A DNA stretch of 64,000 nucleotides from an uncultured Actinomycetes bacterium. Its GTDB lineage: Bacteria > Actinomycetota > UBA4738 > HRBIN12. The DNA is taken from assembly GCA_963744515.1 (NCBI GenBank), contig CAVUTN010000006.1, forward strand, positions 76,280 to 140,279. The letters are read 5' to 3'. Made by a program: the position numbers and the translations under genes. This document shows positions 2,341 through 57,864 of this stretch, piece by piece. The stretch's first letter is position 1, and the number at the start of each line of letters is the position of its first letter. The notes under the pieces are model-generated. The model did not search any database. It saw only the letters and a program-made list of their open reading frames with translations, and had not been told where the DNA came from.

Positions 2341-3151
2341 GTGGATCGCCGGACGAGGACGACGCTGATCGTGGGTGCGGCGGTGCTGTTCGTGGTCGGC
2401 GTGCTGTTCGGGTTCCTGCTGGGCCGATCGGGCAACGACGAGGAGCTCGCGATCCCGACGCCGAGCCCGGAGGCCACCACGACCGCAACGGGACCCACCG
2501 AGGTGGTCACGCCCTACGCCGGGTGAGGCGCCCGCGATCTCGAGCCGGGGGCAGGTGCTCCGGGAGGGCGACCGGGCGGTGACCGCCGCCCCCACCAGCG
2601 CGACGTGCGCGGCGCTGATCACCCCGGGAACGCTCGGCGACTGCGGCGAGGCGATCGTCGCCGACCAACGCGTCGTGTGGGTCGTCGAACGGGTGGCCAC
2701 CCCGACCGGGGCGGCCGCGTTCTCGGTCAGGATCTCGACGTTCGTCCCGGACGAGAACGGGTGGGTCGTGTGGCTCCAGGCGTCCGACCCCGCCGGCGAA
2801 CGCTGGTCGGACGTGAACGTGGTCGCGGCCGACCTGACGGGCGACGGCGTCCAGGAGCTGCTGGTGGGGTTCCGCTCGATCGGCGAGGACCAGACGCTCG
2901 AGTACGACATCGTCGGGTATTCGGAGAACGCCGTGCCCGAGGTGCTCGCCCATCCCGAGCCCGCGCCCAAGGGCTCGGTGATCGTGTCCGGGGGAACGAT
3001 CCAGGAGTACTCGGCGCAATACCCGAACGCCGAACCCGTCTGCTGTCCCGCGAGCTACCTCCGGCAGTCGATCGCGTTCGTGGACTCGTTCTTCCGCGTG
3101 GTCGATTCGGAGACGGTGGTCATCACCGCGGTCCCGCCCTCGCAGCTGTGA
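2341..3151 (+). CDS. membrane-anchored extracytoplasmic protein, unknown function; apparent +1 frameshift near 2520
   Basis: Track ORF 2341..2526 gives a TM anchor (TLIVGAAVLFVVGVLFGFLLG) plus a Thr/Pro linker. The domain continues in the frame of track ORF 2375..3151 (ADLTGDGVQELLVGF, FG-GAP-like). Codon third positions are GC-rich in both parts. Confidence 0.5.
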
Positions 3152-42215: not shown

Positions 42216-42839
42216 CGGGCGTACTCGGTCCCGAACAGCCGGTCCCCGAAGTCCCCGAGCCCCGGCACGATGTACCCGCGCTCGTTCAGCTGGCGGTCGA
42301 TCGCCGCGGTGAAGATCGGCACGTCGGGGTGATCGGCCTCCATCTTCCGGATCCCCTCGGGCGCGGCCACGACGCAGACGAAGCGGATCGACGCGGGCCC
42401 GCCCTCCTTGACGGCGGACGTCGCCGCCGAACCCGAGCCGCCCGTGGCGAGCATCGGGTCGAGCACCAGGACGTGCCGGCCCTCGACCGGTGGGAGCTTG
42501 CGGTAGTACGACTGCGGCTCGAGCGACGCCTCGTCGCGTTCGAGGCCGATGTACCCGACGGCGACCTCGGGGAACAGCTCGGTCACCGCCTCCAGCATCC
42601 CGAGCCCCGCGCGCAGGATCGGCACGGCGACGAGGTCGTCCAGCACGCCGTCCGGTCGTCTCCTCGAGCGGGGTCCGCACCGTGATCTCCGTCGTCGGGA
42701 GGTCGCGGATCGCCTCGAGCGCGAGGGTCAGGGCCAGGCGCTTGGCCAGCGTTCGGAACACCGGGGGCGCCGTCTCCTCCGATCGGAGCTGCGCCAGGAG
42801 GTGGCCGGCGAGCGCGTGGTCCACGACGGTCACGGACAC
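42212..42839 (-). CDS. upp: uracil phosphoribosyltransferase; +1 frameshift near 42650
   Basis: MSVTVVDHALAGHLLAQLRSEETAPPVFR... joins track ORF 42212..42646 (VPILRAGLGM, VLDPMLATGGS, YIVPGLGDFGDR). Confidence 0.85.
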
Positions 42840-42937
42840 GCGCGCATCCTACCGGGGGTTGCCGAACCCCGCTCACCTGACGCGTCGGTCGCCGACGGGT
42901 TGCCAGAGCTGGGCGGGGCTGCCACGATGGCGCCCTG

Positions 42938-42988
42938 ATGCGGGAGACCTTCGGCTTCTGGTTCTACGGCGGGCGGTGCCCGGCCTAG
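42938..42988 (+). CDS. aromatic-rich leader peptide MRETFGFWFYGGRCPA (attenuation leader candidate)
   Basis: Own translation of the 270-nt spacer before DAHP synthase. Five of six consecutive codons (42950-42967) are Phe, Trp or Tyr. Confidence 0.5.
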   Translation: MRETFGFWFYGGRCPA

Positions 42989-43012
42989 TCGCCTGAACCG
43001 AAGGGAACAGCG

Positions 43013-43044
43013 ACCCCGGGCCGGGAGCCCGGGGTTTCGTCGTT
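43013..43044 (+). terminator. attenuator-type intrinsic terminator in the DAHP synthase leader
   Basis: ACCCCGGG (43013-43020), loop ccgggag, CCCGGGGT (43028-43035), then UUCGUCGUU. There is no upstream plus-strand gene for it to terminate. Confidence 0.5.
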
Positions 43045-43109
43045 CCCGAGGCCGTTCGAGGGCGTGCGGGACCGGGCGGGTGGGCCGCCCGGGGAGACGG
43101 AGGAACGCG

Positions 43110-44137
43110 ATGGTCGTGGTCATGAAGCGCGAGGCCACCGAGGCCGACGTCGAGGCGGTCTCCGAACGCGTACGCGCCGCCGGCGGCGAGGCCTTCGTCT
43201 CGCGCGGGGCGGTCCACACGATCATCGGTCTGGTCGGCGACACCGAGCGGTTCCAGGCGATCCCGTGGCGACAGCTCCCGGGCGTGGACCACGTGATCCA
43301 GGTCGGCAAGCCCTACAAGATGGTGGCCGCCGACCTGCACCCGGCGCCGACCACCGTGAACGTGGGCTCGACGGCCGGTGGGTCGCGGAACGTTCACCCT
43401 GATCGCCGGGCCGTGCGCGGTCGAGAGCGAGGAGCAGGCGCTGCTCGCGACCAAGGCCGCGAGGGCCGCCGGCGCGACGATCCTGCGCGGCGACGTCTAC
43501 AAGCCGCGGACGTCGCCGTACTCGTTCCAGGGGCTGGGGGAGCGAGGGCTCGAGGTGCTGGAGGAGTGCCGGCGCCAGACCGGGCTGCCGATCGTCGTGG
43601 AGGTCGTCGACGTGTCGCAGGTGGAGCACGTCGCCGCGGTGGCCGACTGCATCCGTGTCGGCACGCGGAACGCCCAGAACTTCGAGCTGCTCAAGGAGGT
43701 CGGACTCTCGCGCAAGCCCGGTGATGCTCAAGCGCGGCCTCGCGATGACGATCGAGGAGTGGCTCCAGGCCGCCGAGTACGTCGCGCAACGCGGCAACTC
43801 CGAGATCATCCTGTGCGAGCGCGGGATCCGCACGTTCGAGCCGGCCACGCGGAACACCCTCGACCTCGCGGGGATGGCGGTCGCGCAGACCGAGTCCCAT
43901 CTGCCCGTGATCGTCGATCCGTCGCACGCGGTCGGGAAGCGGCACCTCGTCGCGCCGATGTCGCGCGCGGCCCTCGCCGCCGGCGCGGACGCGGTGATGA
44001 TCGACGTCCACCCCGATCCCGAGAGCGCCCTGTGCGACGGCCCGCAGGCCCTCACGCCCGACGAGATCCTCGACCTCGGTCGCGAGCTCGAGCAGCTCGC
44101 CGCGGCGCTGGGGCGGCCGTTCAACCACGCTCGGTAG
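43110..44137 (+). CDS. 3-deoxy-7-phosphoheptulonate (DAHP) synthase, type I-beta with N-terminal regulatory domain; +1 frameshifts near 43375 and 43720
   Basis: GGAGG RBS then ATG 43110. [17 protein letters not shown]... (ferredoxin/ACT-like), then [12 protein letters not shown]...[13 protein letters not shown]...VMLKRG...VIVDPSHA across track ORFs 43080, 43378 and 43655. Confidence 0.85.
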
Positions 44138-44317: not shown

Positions 44318-47300
44318 GTGCACGCACGCATCCGCTCGATCCTGGCATCGCTCGCGATCGTCCTGGCGCTGGTCATCGCCATCCCGGCGGGAGCCGCCAA
44401 GAACACCAAGCCGGCGGCCGGAACGCCCCACGCCGACAAGGTCATCCTCTTCGCGTCCGACGGTATGCGCCCGGACCTCATGGAGCAGTACGCGGCCGAG
44501 GGGGTCATGCCGACCTATGCGGATCTGATGGCGAAGGGTGTCCGGGGTGCGAACGGTCTGACCCAGGGGTTCCCTCCCAACACCGGTGTGGGCTGGTACA
44601 CGCTGGCGACCGGCGCCTACCCGGGGGAGCACGGATCGACGAACAACACCTTCCACCGGACCGGTGAGGGCAACTTCAACAACTCCACGAGCTTCGCCAC
44701 GACGGGGCTGCTGCAGGCCGACACGATCCAGCAGGCGGCCGAGCGCGCCGGCAAGACCGTCGTCTCCCTCGAGTGGGTCGGTTCGCGCAACCTGGTGCCC
44801 GCGCTCCAGGGTCCGGTCGTGGACTTCCGCTCCTTCTTCTCCCGGCGCGGGGTGCTCGTGAACTACGACATCGCCGGGGCAGCCCGCGGGCGCGAACGCG
44901 TTCGGCGTGGACTACTTCCGTGTCGATCTCGATCCCGCCGTCGGGTGGACGAACGTCCCGAGCTCGTTCAGCCCGGCGATGCAGGAGCAGCTCACGAACA
45001 CGACGACCTTCGGCGCCCAGAATCCCACGCGCGTCTACGACCTGTACATCTACGACTCGACCGACGACACAACCACCAACTACGACCACGTGCTGGTGGT
45101 GCCGGACTCGGCAACCAAGAACGGGAGCGCGTCGGTCGCCGATCTCGAGCAGGGCGAGTGGGCCGACGTCAAGGTCACGCTGATCGGCGCTCGCGCCGGC
45201 CAGACGGCGGGGTTCTTCCTGAAGGCGATCGACATCGCCTCGGACCTGTCGACGTTCCGCATCTACTTCACGTCTGTGGCTCGCGCCAACGCGACCTACA
45301 ACGGCTGCACGTACGCGCCGGGTTGCAGCACGGCCCTCGGCTTCGAAGAGACGCTCAACCACGACTTCCCGAGCTCGACGGCGGCGGACTTCGCCCCGCT
45401 CGAGGCCGGGATCGTCGACGAGGACACGTACGTGGAGCAGGGGCTCGCCTGGGCAGACGCCCACCAGGCGTACCTCACGTACATCATCGACGACGCTGGA
45501 CGTGGACCCCGATCTGCTCATGCTCGGGACGCCGACCACCGACGAGTTCCAGCACCAGTTCATGGGGCTCGTCACGCCCACCGATATCGACGGCAACCCG
45601 AACCCCTACTACGACGACGTCACGAACGACGACGTCCTCGACGGGCGGCTCGCGGCTCGCGAGGGCTACATCCGATCGGCGTACGAGGAGGCCGACGACA
45701 CGCTCGCCCTCGGGCGTGAGCTGATGGGCTCGAACGCGACCGTGTTCGCCAGCTCGGATCACGGGTTCGCGCCGCAGTGGTTCGCGGTCAACGCGAGCAA
45801 GGTCCTGAAGGACGCGGGACTCCAGACGACCGAGCAGCTCAACGCCGTCGGCCTGCTCCAGAACTGCCGGAAGGCGTTTTCGGGGGCGACCCTCGCCAAG
45901 GCGTGCTGGGCGGGCGGCACGGCGCAGATCTACCTCAACCTGGCCGGCCGCGATCCGAACCCACCGATCTCGGGAACGGCATGTCCGTGCCTGAACGACC
46001 CACAGGTGCCGGCGGATCAGTATGACGCCGTCCGGAACCAGATCGTGACCGCCTTCGAGACCCTGACGGACCCGGCCAACCCCGGCGCCCAGGTGGTCGA
46101 GGATGTCCTCCTGAAGGAAGAGCTCCGCGACGTCGACGGGAGCGACTCCCTGCACCCGAACCGCAGCGGCGACGTGGTCGTGGTCCTGCGGCCGCCCTAC
46201 CAGTTCGACGCGGCGACACCCGGTCAGACCATCGCGTTCTCGCAGTTCTTCGGACAGCACGGGTACTTCCCGGATCTGGTCGATCTCGCGCACAACGTCA
46301 ACATGCACGCGACGTTCGTCGCCGCCGGCCCGGGGGTCCGCAAGCAGGACCCGGTCGACGGCATCCGAGCGGTGGACGTCGCGCCCACCGTCTCCTTCCT
46401 GATGGGCATCCCCGGCCCGCAGAACGCTCGAGGTCGGATCCTGACCGAGTTGTTCCCGCAGCCCGGCCGGTGGAAGACCGCGACGATCCTGGACATCAGC
46501 GACTACCACGGGCAGCTCGTCCCGCTCACGGAGGCCGCCGACAACCTGTCGGGCGGCGGCGCGGCGAACCCGGCCTTCCCCATCGGCGGATCGGCGTTCC
46601 TCAAGGCGTGGTTCGACCTGTACCGGTCCGAGGCGCCGAACGGATCGATCACGGTCGCGGCGGGAGACTCGGTCGGGGCGACACCGCCGATCTCCGCCTT
46701 CTTCGGCGACGTGCCGACGATCGAGATCATGAACCTGATGGGGTTCTCGGCGGACGGACTCGGGAATCACAACTTCGACAAGGGCGAGCAGTACCTGCGG
46801 AACACGTTGATCCCGCTCGCCGACTTCCCCTACCTTTCCTCGAACATCGTGGACGCGCAGGGGAACACACCCGCGGAGTGGTCCCCGTCGCGGGTCTTCG
46901 GCTTCGCCGGGACGAAGATCGGCCTCGTGGGCTTCTCGAACGAAGACATCCCCGAGCTGATCTTCCCCGGCGGTCTCGGACCGTTCCACGTCGCATCCCG
47001 GGTCCCGGCGGTGCAGGCCGAGGTCGACCGCCTGAGGAGCACCGGGGTCAACACGATCGTCGTCATGGGGCATGACGGCGCGACCGCCGGAACGCTCACG
47101 GCCCCCACGGGCCCGGTCGTGAACCTCGCCGACGGGCTCACGGGGGTCGATGCGGTGATCGGCGATCACACCAACGTCCAGGTGCTGACGACCCGGCCGA
47201 ACGGCGTGCTCCTGACCGAGAACCTCAGCAAGGGCGCGCGGTTCACGCGGATCCGGCTCGTGATCGACACCAGCACGAAGGCGGTCGTCTACAAGACGGC

Positions 47301-48103
47301 CGACTTCCACAAGCCGTGGACGATGGGGGTGACGCCCGATCCCGCGATCCAAGCCGAGATCGACGACCTCAACGCGCAACTCCAACCCATCCTCGGAACG
47401 GTGATCGGCTCCTCGACGGTCGAGATCCTGCGGTCCGACGTCTGCGGTCGGGTCGACGGCAGGCTGTGCGAATCGCTCGTCGGCGACGTGACGACCGACG
47501 CGATGCGCGCCGCCTACGGGGCCGACTTCGCGATCACCAACTCGGGTGGCCTGCGCGACCGGCTCACGTGTCCGGCGGCCGGCGGCGGGACCGGGTTCTG
47601 TCCGCCCTCGTCGCCGCCCCCGTACCCGATCACGCGCGGCCAGGTGCTCGCGGTGCTCCCGTTCGGCAACGTCGTGGTCACGCTCCTGGTGAACGGAGCC
47701 GAGCTGAAGACGATGCTCGAGAACGGCGTGTCGCAGATGCCGTCGGCGGTCGGGCGGTTCCCACAGGTCTCCGGCCTGTGCTTCACCTACAACATCGAGG
47801 CCTCACCCGGGAACCGTGTGACCGGAGCCGTCCGCCAAGCGCCGGACGGGGAGCTGCACCGGCGCCCCGGTGGACCTGACGTCGTCGACCGCGTACGAGA
47901 TCGCCGAGAACGACTTCATGGTGAGCGGCGGCGACGGCTACCCGAACTTCTTCGCGCGCGCGACGACACGGGACATCATGGACCAGGTCCTCGCCGACTA
48001 CGTGACGGCGAACACGCCGATCTCGCCGGCGATCCAGGCGCGCATCCACTGTTTCGACCCGAACCCCGGATCCGGGAACGACTGTCCGGTTGGGTCGACC
48101 TAG
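44318..48103 (+). CDS. secreted nucleotide pyrophosphatase/phosphodiesterase (alkaline-phosphatase superfamily) fused to 5'-nucleotidase (about 1260 aa); +1 frameshifts near 44880, 45493 and 47848
   Basis: Signal peptide [36 protein letters not shown]...[16 protein letters not shown]...SSDHGF (NPP-type). Then [11 protein letters not shown]...[10 protein letters not shown]...VVMGHDG (metallophosphoesterase) and a 5'-NT C-terminal domain. Four track ORFs in frames 2,0,1,2. Confidence 0.8.
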
Positions 48104-48153
48104 GCGACGCGACGGCATGATCGGCCGGGCCTGCGAGAGCGCGGGCCCGGCCG

Positions 48154-57790: not shown

Positions 57791-57864
57791 TGCGGGGTGG
57801 AGCAGTCCGGTAGCTCGCTGGGCTCATAACCCAGAGGTCACGGGTTCAAATCCCGTCCCCGCGA
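57791..57864 (+). tRNA. tRNA-Met (anticodon CAT), initiator-like; CCA not encoded
   Basis: Hand-folded cloverleaf: acceptor TGCGGGG/CCCCGCG, D arm GAGC/GCTC, anticodon arm CTGGG-CTCATAA-CCCAG (three G:C pairs next to the loop, as in initiators), T arm ACGGG-TTCAAAT-CCCGT, discriminator A. Confidence 0.85.

Follow-up and report, generated by a model that had tools for sequence, protein, structure and literature searches.

A predicted leader-peptide transcription attenuator with Phe, Trp and Tyr codons upstream of DAHP synthase in uncultured Actinomycetota

In the DNA analysed here (a stretch of 64 kb, which as a whole is called the window), the start codon of the divergent upp gene (GTG 42839, minus strand) is separated from the ATG of a DAHP synthase gene (43110, plus strand) by a 270-nt spacer. 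The preliminary description of this locus correctly noted that no plus-strand gene lies upstream, the neighbour being upp on the minus strand, and proposed that the spacer encodes a ribosome-mediated transcription attenuator. The locus raises the question of whether a short open reading frame (ORF) and a GC-rich hairpin ahead of DAHP synthase act together as a switch, or whether one or both of them have another role.

Results

The translated elements of the locus are the following.
42938-42988 (+): leader ORF, MRETFGFWFYGGRCPA + TAG; 16 codons, with ATG at 42938 and TAG at 42986-42988
42950 (TTC), 42956 (TTC), 42959 (TGG), 42962 (TTC) and 42965 (TAC) (+): regulatory codons of the leader
43099-43103 (+): Shine-Dalgarno (SD) sequence GGAGG of DAHP synthase; an SD-like 4-mer is present in 61/61 loci
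43110-44137 (+): type I-beta DAHP synthase with an N-terminal FXD domain (NF006421, 454.6 bits; PF18152 + PF00793; TIGR01361 DAHP_synth_Bsub)

Rechecking of the coordinates and translation confirmed the leader as originally described, with five aromatic residues in six (F5-G6-F7-W8-F9-Y10). In a census of ATG-started small ORFs of 8-40 aa in six frames of the whole 64-kb window, it was the only one among 215 with at least four aromatic residues in six. In the window, 3.2% of sense triplets code for aromatic residues, so that the probability of at least five aromatic residues in six is 1.8e-7 per position and the chance expectation over about 3,655 positions is about 7e-4. Over 59 distinct leaders from related loci, Phe, Trp and Tyr account for 30% of residues (against the background of 3.2%), and all three are present in 43/59. 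This is the enrichment of end-product codons expected of an attenuator leader, in an ORF whose translation is predicted. The downstream gene itself is broken in frame by single-G insertions at about 43373 and about 43720; the switch at this locus may therefore precede a pseudogene, but the two single-base breaks are more likely, and probably, assembly errors.

Two elements upstream of the leader resemble a promoter.
42900-42905 (+): -35 box TTGCCA; TTG[ACT]C starts 39 or 38 nt upstream of the leader ATG in 53/61 related loci
42920-42928 (+): extended -10-like element TGcCACGAT, with the hexamer CACGAT at 42923-42928

In 42/61 loci, [CT]AnnAT begins at -15 from the leader ATG, 17-18 nt past the -35 box. 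Because of this position of the -10 element, transcription would start 0-3 nt before the leader ATG, and the promoter spacing suggests a leaderless mRNA as the probable template for leader translation. In 13/61 loci, the leader ATG has an SD-like 4-mer ahead of it. A promoter and terminator scan called no site within 42500-43500; its rules (a TATAAT-like -10 element and at least five T in eight) are unsuited to this GC-rich lineage, and conservation was used in its place.

Relatives were loci of the downstream type I-beta DAHP synthase in the main clade of uncultured Actinomycetota for which 200 nt or more of upstream DNA were present. An aromatic-rich ORF of 16-21 codons, a hairpin and a T-rich tail occupy the same place in 62/62 of these loci; loss of the mini-ORF and hairpin in relatives, which the preliminary description had named as the outcome that would count against it, was thus not what we found. 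The conserved unit consists of a promoter spaced for a leaderless start, the ORF, a long hairpin, an invariant CCCGG beside the stop and a T-tailed GC hairpin, and each main-clade locus has one copy immediately upstream of DAHP synthase. In each of 60 loci, a covariance model (R1) matched a single site, at 73-120 bits; it gave 85.5 bits for a locus outside its training set (L050), and a search with a covariance model found no second copy of the leader in the 64-kb window. The reading frame between the promoter and CCCGG-TAG is kept in 59/59 distinct leaders, over four ORF lengths. Identity to the closest relatives is 95-98% in the leader, 90-91% in the coding sequence of DAHP synthase and 64-70% in the spacer after the terminator; over the loci, this last segment is the least conserved part (39-70% identity), and the distance from leader stop to DAHP synthase ATG ranges from 86 to 138 nt. 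A diverged version of the leader occurs in Streptosporangiales, Longivirga and Nanopelagicales.

The following RNA elements are predicted in the window.
42948-43004 (+): P1, long hairpin (anti-antiterminator); -32.5 kcal/mol, z -3.3
42978-42992 (+): antiterminator 5' strand, GCCCGGCCU + GUCGC, which overlaps the stop and the two sense codons before it
43010-43025 (+): antiterminator 3' strand, GCGAC + GGGCCGGG, overlapping the terminator 5' arm and loop
43013-43035 (+): predicted terminator hairpin, ACCCCGGGC / CGGGA / GCCCGGGGU; 9 pairs, 8 of them G-C
43036-43044 (+): T-rich tail, UUCGUCGUU / TTCGTCGTT, ending 66 nt before the DAHP synthase ATG

The 5' arm of P1 contains the aromatic codons, its 3' arm contains CCCGG, the stop codon and the sequence after the stop, and its apex is GGGC (42971-74) paired with GCCC (42978-81). 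None of 200 shuffles matched the fold energy of the P1 segment, and P1 architecture recurs in the minimum free energy folds computed for each locus in most of 59 leaders. The antiterminator segment folds at -28.8 kcal/mol (z -3.4; 0/200 shuffles), and its 5' strand pairs with 43010-43025 in folds with a ribosome parked on the aromatic codons. The terminator hairpin by itself has the weakest of the three energies (-21.6 kcal/mol, z -1.5), which is unexceptional for such GC-rich sequence, and the fold of the whole leader did not differ significantly from shuffles (z -1.39). The GC hairpin and U-rich tail at 43013-43044 were recovered as originally placed. The U tract in the window is interrupted and imperfect (UUUCGUCGUU), and the strict terminator scan makes no call on it; over 59 loci, T makes up on average a fraction of 0.54 (range 0.4-0.7) of the 10 nt that follow the stem, compared with 0.148 for the whole window. 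The predicted terminator loop varies from 4 to 10 nt across loci.

When the alternative structures were folded, as the preliminary description had suggested, both complementarities that it had pointed out, CCUUCGG (42948-54) with CCGAAGG (42998-43004) and CCCGGCC (42979-85) with GGCCGGG (43019-25), appeared in the computed folds and took part in the predicted switch of the window. The second of them, proposed as the antiterminator, is a real pairing, but its register is not that of the family: the family-wide helix joins GCCCGG (42978-83) to CCGGGC (43016-21), a strand inside the terminator 5' arm, whereas the original register is shifted by 3-4 nt, is specific to the window and extends to 8 bp plus GUCGC:GCGAC.

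Structure statistics come from a MAFFT alignment made without fitting to a structure. In P1 and the terminator together, 90.3% of cells are paired, compared with 36-55% after sliding of the partners. The covariation score of 0.107 (against 0.069) is not reached by any of 500 shuffles, and double changes occur at eight pairs. A model-based alignment gave the same outcome. Compensatory changes are found at 7/18 P1 pairs. The terminator hairpin is kept in 60/60 loci, with 99.6-100% of cells paired over 59-60 loci and one covarying pair (A-U to G-C in 8-9 loci). For the family-wide antiterminator helix, 87.9% of cells are paired, against 27-58% with partners slid, and its closing pair alternates between GC (39 sequences) and AU (11 sequences), where shuffles give 3.4 +/- 1.3. 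These data point to a predicted antiterminator that is built from the end of the leader ORF and is mutually exclusive with the terminator.

The same pairing is visible in the peptide. CCGG at the leader end is invariant and its flanking C is kept in 58/59 leaders, while the encoded residues vary: Pro within CCCGG is encoded by CCG without exception, and a C precedes that codon in 58/59 whatever the residue. The only substitutes for the Trp codon TGG are CGG and GGG, one Gly/Phe codon covaries with the final Ala/Gly codon (GC, 39; UG, 12; UA, 2), and the stop is TAG, pairing with CUA, in 58/59 leaders. The leader is a case, open to covariation tests, of a peptide sequence largely dictated by RNA pairing. 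TAG, fixed here as the leader stop, is a rare stop codon.

The dependence of the fold on ribosome position was examined in silico by folding the full-length RNA with a ribosome footprint masked at a given codon. In the window, the probability of the terminator was 1.00 for the naked RNA and 1.00 with the ribosome at the stop codon, and 0.92, 0.06, 0.05, 0.03 and 0.86 with the ribosome on F5, F7, W8, F9 and Y10, respectively. Family means were 0.96 (naked), 0.998 (stop) and 0.71 (stalled), and the energy gap in favour of the terminator fell from 13.0 to 5.7 kcal/mol on stalling. With the terminator 3' arm untranscribed, the 5' arm was already paired upstream in the stalled states with a mean probability of 0.83 (best codon, 0.92), and it also found weak upstream partners in the naked and stop-codon states of the truncated RNA (mean, 0.58); because these last states are less clean, the interpretation leans more on the probabilities and energy gaps of the full-length RNA. 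The distance from the last aromatic codon to CCCGG is 14 nt in 35 loci and 11 nt in another 20, at the edge of a stalled ribosome footprint. In the model, ribosome position thus decides the fold. In about 27/59 loci, however, the terminator prevails at equilibrium in all stalled states, and for these loci the model needs the usual kinetic argument, namely that the antiterminator forms first. For the Streptosporangiales version, the masking model did not discriminate stall from stop; that version needs a model of its own, and we do not claim that it works identically.

Discussion

Conservation, covariation and the computed position-dependent switch all support the original proposal of ribosome-mediated attenuation upstream of DAHP synthase. 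We consider it probable, at roughly 85%, that a leader-peptide transcription attenuator sets DAHP synthase expression by the supply of charged tRNA-Phe, tRNA-Trp and tRNA-Tyr. In the scheme that we infer for the transcription start, the actual termination and the amino-acid response, transcription would begin at the leader ATG or at most a few bases from it, and a ribosome would translate the 16-codon leader while RNA polymerase moves on downstream. When aromatic aminoacyl-tRNAs are plentiful, the ribosome would reach TAG and cover the CCCGG element (42978-83) that abuts the stop, leaving the terminator 5' arm with its own 3' arm as sole partner; the hairpin at 43013-43035 and its U-rich tail would then form, and transcription would stop 66 nt before the gene. 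Once the ribosome has left, or if the leader is not translated, P1 (42948-43004) would sequester CCCGG, so that the default state would also be termination. When an aromatic aminoacyl-tRNA is scarce, the ribosome would stall on codons 5-10 and hold the 5' arm of P1 open, with its leading edge halted just before CCCGG. The freed CCCGG-stop-GUCGC strand could then pair with the emerging terminator 5' arm as the antiterminator (42979-43025), and polymerase would continue into the DAHP synthase gene.

The same elements could be read in other ways. The leader ORF might act mainly on translation, through remodelling of the 5' UTR, access to the ribosome-binding site (RBS) or re-initiation, with the GC hairpin being structural rather than a terminator; a mixed version would combine attenuation with a translational layer. 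We consider this unlikely. It fits the weak U tracts and the extra copy of CCCCGGG or CCCGGG that follows the U tract in many loci and is able to pair with the terminator 3' arm, and re-initiation roles have been proposed for actinobacterial leader genes by Korolev et al. (PMC4833913). In several loci (L018, L022, L035-L039, L043 and L048), the unpaired probability of the SD indeed rises from 0.01-0.4 to 0.7-0.8 when the terminator 3' arm is free; however, this effect is not uniform, as the means are 0.36 and 0.49 and the window changes from 0.14 to 0.36. The poor conservation of the post-terminator spacer also speaks against a translational role, as does the distance between leader stop and DAHP synthase ATG, which is far for coupling, and the conserved T-rich tail right after the stem is needed by a terminator and not by a translational hairpin.

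Still less credible is a reading in which a dimeric repressor binds the inverted repeat ACCCCGGG...CCCGGGGT as its DNA operator, close to the promoter or as a roadblock, and the aromatic mini-ORF is incidental. Its 7-bp arms are invariant in 59 loci and recur in distant Streptosporangiales, as those of a protein-binding palindrome might, and CCCGGG is palindromic in itself, but an arm spacing of 4 to 10 nt is unusual for an operator, and there is covariation in the pairs that flank the core (A-U to G-C and C-G to U-A). Nor would an operator account for a T-rich tail that is strand-specific and conserved, for CCCGG, a third copy with complementary sequence that is fixed at the leader stop and has a closing pair covarying with the terminator arm, or for the conservation of the ORF, its frame and its aromatic content. 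The least probable reading in our judgement is that the small ORF encodes a functional micropeptide or arose by chance, with the hairpin merely stabilizing or punctuating the 5' UTR. In its favour, the ORF is conserved and its C-terminus recurs as G-x-x-P-[AG]; this recurrence is due to the GGG/CCCGG pairing, and residues are free outside the aromatic cluster while nucleotides are fixed wherever they are paired. A chance ORF is excluded by the aromatic-run statistics together with conservation. The operator, micropeptide and chance-ORF readings were rejected on variable loop length, covariation and nucleotide-level conservation.

If the attenuator reading is true, a single RNA switch probably integrates the charging of three aromatic tRNAs at the entry to the shikimate pathway in abundant uncultured Actinomycetota, and it would add to whatever allosteric control the FXD domain provides. 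What is new is a conserved form of a classic switch that we did not find described or catalogued; no concept is changed, because the mechanism class has been known for decades. More tentatively, and with more doubt than confidence, we propose an undescribed RNA family: a leaderless tri-aromatic (Phe/Trp/Tyr) attenuator with a near-palindromic CCCGG/CCCCGGG/CCCGGGG triad, found on I-beta DAHP synthases of the FXD type throughout a large lineage of uncultured Actinomycetota and in diverged form in Streptosporangiales. In some members, a fourth copy downstream of the terminator might link the antiterminated fold to RBS exposure and so provide a layer of translational control. The leader would be a ready-made Rfam family and could serve as an annotation marker for the DAHP synthase transcription unit in metagenome-assembled genomes.

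In Rfam at the gathering threshold, the whole window gives a tRNA as its sole hit, with no leader, T-box or riboswitch family, and at E <= 10 the region 42700-43300 gives only chance hairpin matches (11-17 bits, against gathering scores of 40-78). The enterobacterial trpL and pheL attenuators, described by the Yanofsky model with its 1:2, 2:3 and 3:4 pairings, are represented in Rfam by Trp_leader (RF00513) and related families. The window leader would follow the same 1:2/2:3/3:4 logic, with regulatory codons in segment 1, the stop beside segment 2, termination as the untranslated default, and a terminator that is more stable than needed yet pre-empted by the antiterminator. In contrast to trpL and pheL, it is probably leaderless, lacks an SD sequence, mixes three amino acids, has an imperfect U tract in a 70% GC context and shows no sequence or model similarity to them (no Rfam match).

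Closer in setting are the leaderless leader peptides of Streptomyces lividans TK24 (trpL1, leuL, ilvL and others; PMC8079986) and the actinobacterial attenuators predicted by Seliverstov et al. 2005 (PMC1262725), the main texts of which make no mention of aro or DAHP synthase genes. Like the window leader, these are short leaderless ORFs, enriched in cognate codons, that stand ahead of genes for amino-acid biosynthesis in high-GC Actinobacteria and are followed by hairpins, some with a good U tract and some not; the window leader differs in its gene and in having its own conserved CCCGG/CCCCGGG/CCCGGGG triad.

In the literature that we searched, which covered few subscription journals, no DAHP synthase leader was found outside Corynebacterium. 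The leader that the preliminary description mentioned from that genus exists: it is aroR of the C. glutamicum aroR-aroF system, with Phe-Tyr-Phe before a DAHP synthase gene (Mentz et al. 2013, PMC4046766; PMC11802643), and ribosome stalling at Phe limitation enhances read-through there (Neshat et al. 2014, as summarised in PMC11802643). Both systems place an aromatic-codon leader peptide upstream of an actinobacterial DAHP synthase gene, and in both tRNA charging would control the first committed step of the shikimate pathway. The window-type leaders mostly contain all three aromatics including Trp, with about five aromatic codons compared with three in aroR. The enzymes also differ, that of the window being type I-beta with an FXD domain, whereas AroF of C. 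glutamicum (cg1129) is a type I-alpha enzyme. An independent origin seems likely, and from this comparison by description we regard the window leader as analogous to aroR-aroF rather than as a member of the same family.

Setting of the leader

The leader and its neighbours in the window are as follows.

GTG start 42839, minus strand: divergent uracil phosphoribosyltransferase gene upp, the upstream neighbour of the leader
42938-42988, plus strand: leader ORF MRETFGFWFYGGRCPA, 16 codons, ATG at 42938 and stop TAG at 42986-42988, read from the sequence
43013-43035, plus strand: putative terminator hairpin of 9 bp, ACCCCGGGC / CGGGA / GCCCGGGGU, read from the sequence
ATG 43110, plus strand: DAHP synthase gene, type I-beta with N-terminal FXD domain (NCBIfam NF006421, 454.6 bits)

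The leader ORF, the hairpin and the DAHP synthase ATG match the window sequence exactly as they were first described, and the tail UUCGUCGUU directly follows the hairpin. The spacer between upp and the DAHP synthase gene is 270 nt long and, as had been stated, no plus-strand gene adjoins it upstream, upp being on the minus strand. Transcription of upp in the opposite direction makes the spacer a divergent promoter region and rules out the hairpin as the terminator of an upstream gene. Upstream of the leader, two branched-chain-type ABC permease genes (PF02653; 40837-42114, plus strand) are convergent with upp; such a pair is also present in the related locus L002 (59-2112), with no obvious tie to aromatic metabolism. 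Since the next plus-strand gene, a phosphodiesterase/5'-nucleotidase about 180 nt past the DAHP synthase stop, is unrelated to the pathway, the regulated unit appears to be the DAHP synthase gene alone.

PF18152 and PF00793 were found in all close homologues of the DAHP synthase. Compared with the closest relative (L001), the window frame of this gene is broken twice by single-G insertions (~43373 and ~43720) and upp carries a one-base insertion (~42649), all in short G/C runs; the phosphodiesterase/5'-nucleotidase frame is likewise split into two overlapping ORFs (44318-48120). These breaks look like assembly indel errors of the long-read MAG type rather than marks of pseudogenes. The leader region is free of indels and 98% identical to the closest relative.

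Codons 5-10 of the leader read Phe-Gly-Phe-Trp-Phe-Tyr. The six frames of the 64-kb window contain 215 ORFs of 8-40 codons that start with ATG, and only the leader has at least four aromatic residues in any six. At a frequency of 3.2% aromatic codons among sense triplets, five in six would arise with a probability of 1.8e-7 at each of about 3,655 positions. Folding of the three helices, namely the long hairpin P1 (the anti-antiterminator), the antiterminator and the terminator, gave the following values.

Predicted helices in the window and their shuffled controls
42946-43006, P1 hairpin: -32.5 kcal/mol, z -3.3, 0/200 shuffles as good
42976-43027, antiterminator: -28.8 kcal/mol, z -3.4, 0/200 shuffles as good
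43010-43046, terminator hairpin: -21.6 kcal/mol, z -1.5, 18/200 shuffles as good

By itself the terminator hairpin is ordinary for sequence this GC-rich, and a simple consensus scan called neither promoter nor terminator at the leader region; support for the switch therefore comes from comparison with related loci.

Conservation in related loci

A search with an alignment of the DAHP synthase, restricted to one genome per species, returned 80 loci with 97-59% protein identity, nearly all from uncultured Actinomycetota, together with Streptosporangiales, Longivirga and Nanopelagicales. The preliminary description had proposed looking for the mini-ORF and hairpin in relatives, and both are conserved in the main clade of uncultured Actinomycetota: an ORF of 16-21 codons with a Phe/Trp/Tyr cluster (for example MQGYFGFWFSYFGRDPG, MERTYRYWFFYFGPGPA and MRRFFGGRYFFYGGDDPA) occurs in 62/62 loci for which 200 nt or more of upstream DNA are available, stopping 86-138 nt before the DAHP synthase ATG. 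Aromatic residues make up 30% of the 59 distinct leaders, 43 of which contain Phe, Trp and Tyr together. A covariance model of these leaders (group-A model) gave each locus a single hit of 73-120 bits, located just 5' of the DAHP synthase gene in every case, and found no second copy in the 64-kb window; it also recovered, at 85.5 bits, the leader of L050 (MRRTYRSWCSFVGPDPA), which lay outside the training set and had been overlooked by the initial ORF filter. Among the closest relatives, leader identity is 95-98%, compared with 90-91% for the DAHP synthase coding sequence, and 64-70% for the spacer after the terminator, which drops further, to about 40%, in loci less closely related. In two loci the spacer carries tandem repeats: a unit of about 18 nt containing GAGGAGG, repeated 3-4 times and offering several potential ribosome-binding sites (L033, ~2935-3000), and, in the Streptosporangiales locus L078 (~2910-2985), about five copies of a 'caccgttcacaag' unit.

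Three related near-palindromic elements are nearly fixed in the leader RNA.

CCCGG, directly before the leader stop codon: CCGG invariant, first C in 58/59 leaders
CCCCGGG, terminator 5' arm: 58/59 leaders, with a one-base shift in L019
CCCGGGG, terminator 3' arm: 58/59 leaders

In a MAFFT alignment made without structure information, 90.3% of the cells of P1 and the terminator are paired, a share that drops to 36-55% once partners are slid by 1-3 columns, and their covariation score is 0.107 against 0.069 in shuffled alignments (0/500 reach 0.107), with both-sided changes in eight pairs; a model-based alignment left this picture unchanged. The 5' arm of P1 consists of the aromatic codons and its 3' arm of CCCGG, the stop codon and the sequence after it. 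The terminator core is invariant, with one base pair changing from A-U to G-C in 8-9 loci. For the antiterminator, in which the CCCGG-stop strand pairs with the terminator 5' arm, pairing reaches 87.9% of cells, compared with 27-58% after sliding, and the helix is closed by G-C in 39 sequences and by A-U in 11 (shuffled 3.4 +/- 1.3). Each of the three predicted helices thus has comparative support in these alignments.

The peptide itself follows the pairing. Within CCCGG, the Pro codon is CCG in all 59 leaders, and the preceding codon, which completes the element, ends in C in 58/59, whether it encodes Cys, Gly, Asp, Ser or Arg. In Trp-less leaders TGG is swapped for CGG or GGG only, so both P1-pairing G's are retained. 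The codon six from the end alternates between Gly(GGC) and Phe(TTC) and covaries with a last codon of Ala(GCG) or Gly(GGG) (GC:39, UG:12, UA:2), and the stop codon, TAG in 58/59 leaders, pairs with CUA at the Tyr codon. These observations argue for an RNA switch read by the ribosome, rather than a functional micropeptide.

A -35 box (TTGCCA/TTGACA/TTGTCA) lies at -39 or -38 from the leader ATG in 53/61 loci, and a TGn-CAnnAT element at -15 in 42/61, with a gap of 17-18 nt, a spacing that would place the transcription start 0-3 nt before the leader ATG. SD (Shine-Dalgarno)-like 4-mers precede the leader ATG in only 13/61 loci but the DAHP synthase ATG in 61/61. On this start position and the scarcity of SD-like 4-mers, the leader is probably translated from a leaderless mRNA, as is reported for 7/8 leader peptides of Streptomyces lividans (PMC8079986). 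A second ATG, 11 nt 5' of the leader ATG (42927-42938) and kept in most loci, opens ATG-GCG-CCC-TGA in the window and overlaps the leader start as TGATG. Since this ATG lies within the -10-like element (CAnnATG) and, outside the window, is out of frame, it probably belongs to the promoter rather than to a second mini-ORF.

Predicted folding switch

In the footprint model, the 30 nt covered by a ribosome were kept unpaired as each leader was folded; they begin 17 nt before the first base of the A-site codon and end 12 nt after it.

Probability of the terminator in the full-length window RNA
Naked RNA: 1.00
Ribosome at stop codon: 1.00
Ribosome stalled on F5: 0.92
Ribosome stalled on F7: 0.06
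Ribosome stalled on W8: 0.05
Ribosome stalled on F9: 0.03
Ribosome stalled on Y10: 0.86

In place of the terminator, the computed fold pairs CCCGGCCU (42979-86) with GGGCCGGG (43018-25) and GUCGC (42988-92) with GCGAC (43010-14), an extended form of the antiterminator proposed in the preliminary description. Across the family, the mean probability of the terminator is 0.96 for naked RNA, 0.998 at the stop codon and 0.71 when stalled, and the computed energy advantage of the terminated fold drops from 13.0 to 5.7 kcal/mol. At equilibrium the probability falls below 0.5 for at least one aromatic codon in 32/59 loci. The other loci would need the classical kinetic argument; this is plausible, since the terminator 5' arm is predicted to pair upstream, with a mean probability of 0.83 when stalled (0.92 at the best codon), ahead of 3' arm synthesis. 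In 35 loci the last aromatic codon precedes CCCGG by 14 nt, and in 20 loci by 11 nt, distances that match the leading edge of a stalled ribosome; the terminator arm follows 28-34 nt after the stop codon.

Diverged leaders

Longer aromatic leaders of the MRTAFWFWYGDGPVGRTVRHQMLR type occur in Streptosporangium, Planobispora, Microbispora, Nonomuraea, Actinomadura and Spirillospora (Streptosporangiales), about 150-230 nt 5' of the DAHP synthase ATG (L065-L069, L071, L073-L075 and L077-L080). They have a 13-18-bp terminator with a better U tract, and GGACCCG within the ORF has its complement, CGGGUCC, in the terminator arm. Against the group-A model these leaders score weakly (15-25 bits). As their stop codon lies about 45 nt past the aromatic cluster, the footprint model did not separate stall from stop in these leaders; the mechanism is presumably related to that of the main clade. 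The leaders of Longivirga and Nanopelagicales are F-Y-G-Y and W-Q-F-Y versions (L072 and L076).

Discussion

Conservation, covariation and the computed fold switch support the ribosome-mediated attenuation suggested in the preliminary description, and the element most likely acts as a classical attenuator of the trp/phe type. A ribosome at the stop codon would cover CCCGG, allowing the terminator to form, and in an untranslated or released leader P1 would fold, with the same outcome. A ribosome awaiting Phe-, Trp- or Tyr-tRNA would keep P1 open and CCCGG free; the antiterminator would then form first and polymerase would enter the DAHP synthase gene.

Some members of the family may act purely through translation, as a fourth CCCCGGG/CCCGGG-like copy after the U tract (43045-43109 in the window, and the matching spacer in L018, L022, L035-L039, L043 and L048) can pair with the terminator 3' arm, raising predicted SD accessibility in some loci. 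However, the effect is uneven across loci and weak in the window (0.14 to 0.36), and the post-terminator spacer is the least conserved part; the fourth copy could instead add a second, translational layer. The hairpin arms are unlikely to be a DNA operator, given that the spacing between them varies from 4 to 10 nt, that the pairs flanking the core covary and that the T-rich tail is strand-specific.

We consider this attenuator-like element, on the comparative evidence, to be a new, well-conserved example of a long-known class of regulator. Rfam 15 holds no family matching the leader region or element; at gathering threshold the 64-kb window yields a single Rfam match, a tRNA gene (57791-57864, plus strand). 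The actinobacterial survey of Seliverstov et al. makes no mention of aro genes, an aromatic or DAHP synthase leader is absent from the S. lividans survey (PMC8079986), and we found no published description of the element in the searchable literature, which covers few subscription journals. Its main value lies in annotation and as a candidate RNA family, and it is a neat case of RNA pairing dictating peptide sequence.

Among published cases, aroR-aroF of Corynebacterium glutamicum comes closest. It is the Corynebacterium leader mentioned in the preliminary description; in it a Phe-Tyr-Phe leader precedes a DAHP synthase gene and Phe limitation induces read-through (PMC4046766; PMC11802643). It shares its logic and its phylum with the window leader, although the leaders of the window family are richer and usually include Trp. 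The enzyme of C. glutamicum is a type I-alpha DAHP synthase, whereas that of the window is of type I-beta with an FXD domain. As aroR was compared by description rather than by sequence, we treat the two leaders as analogous and claim no homology.
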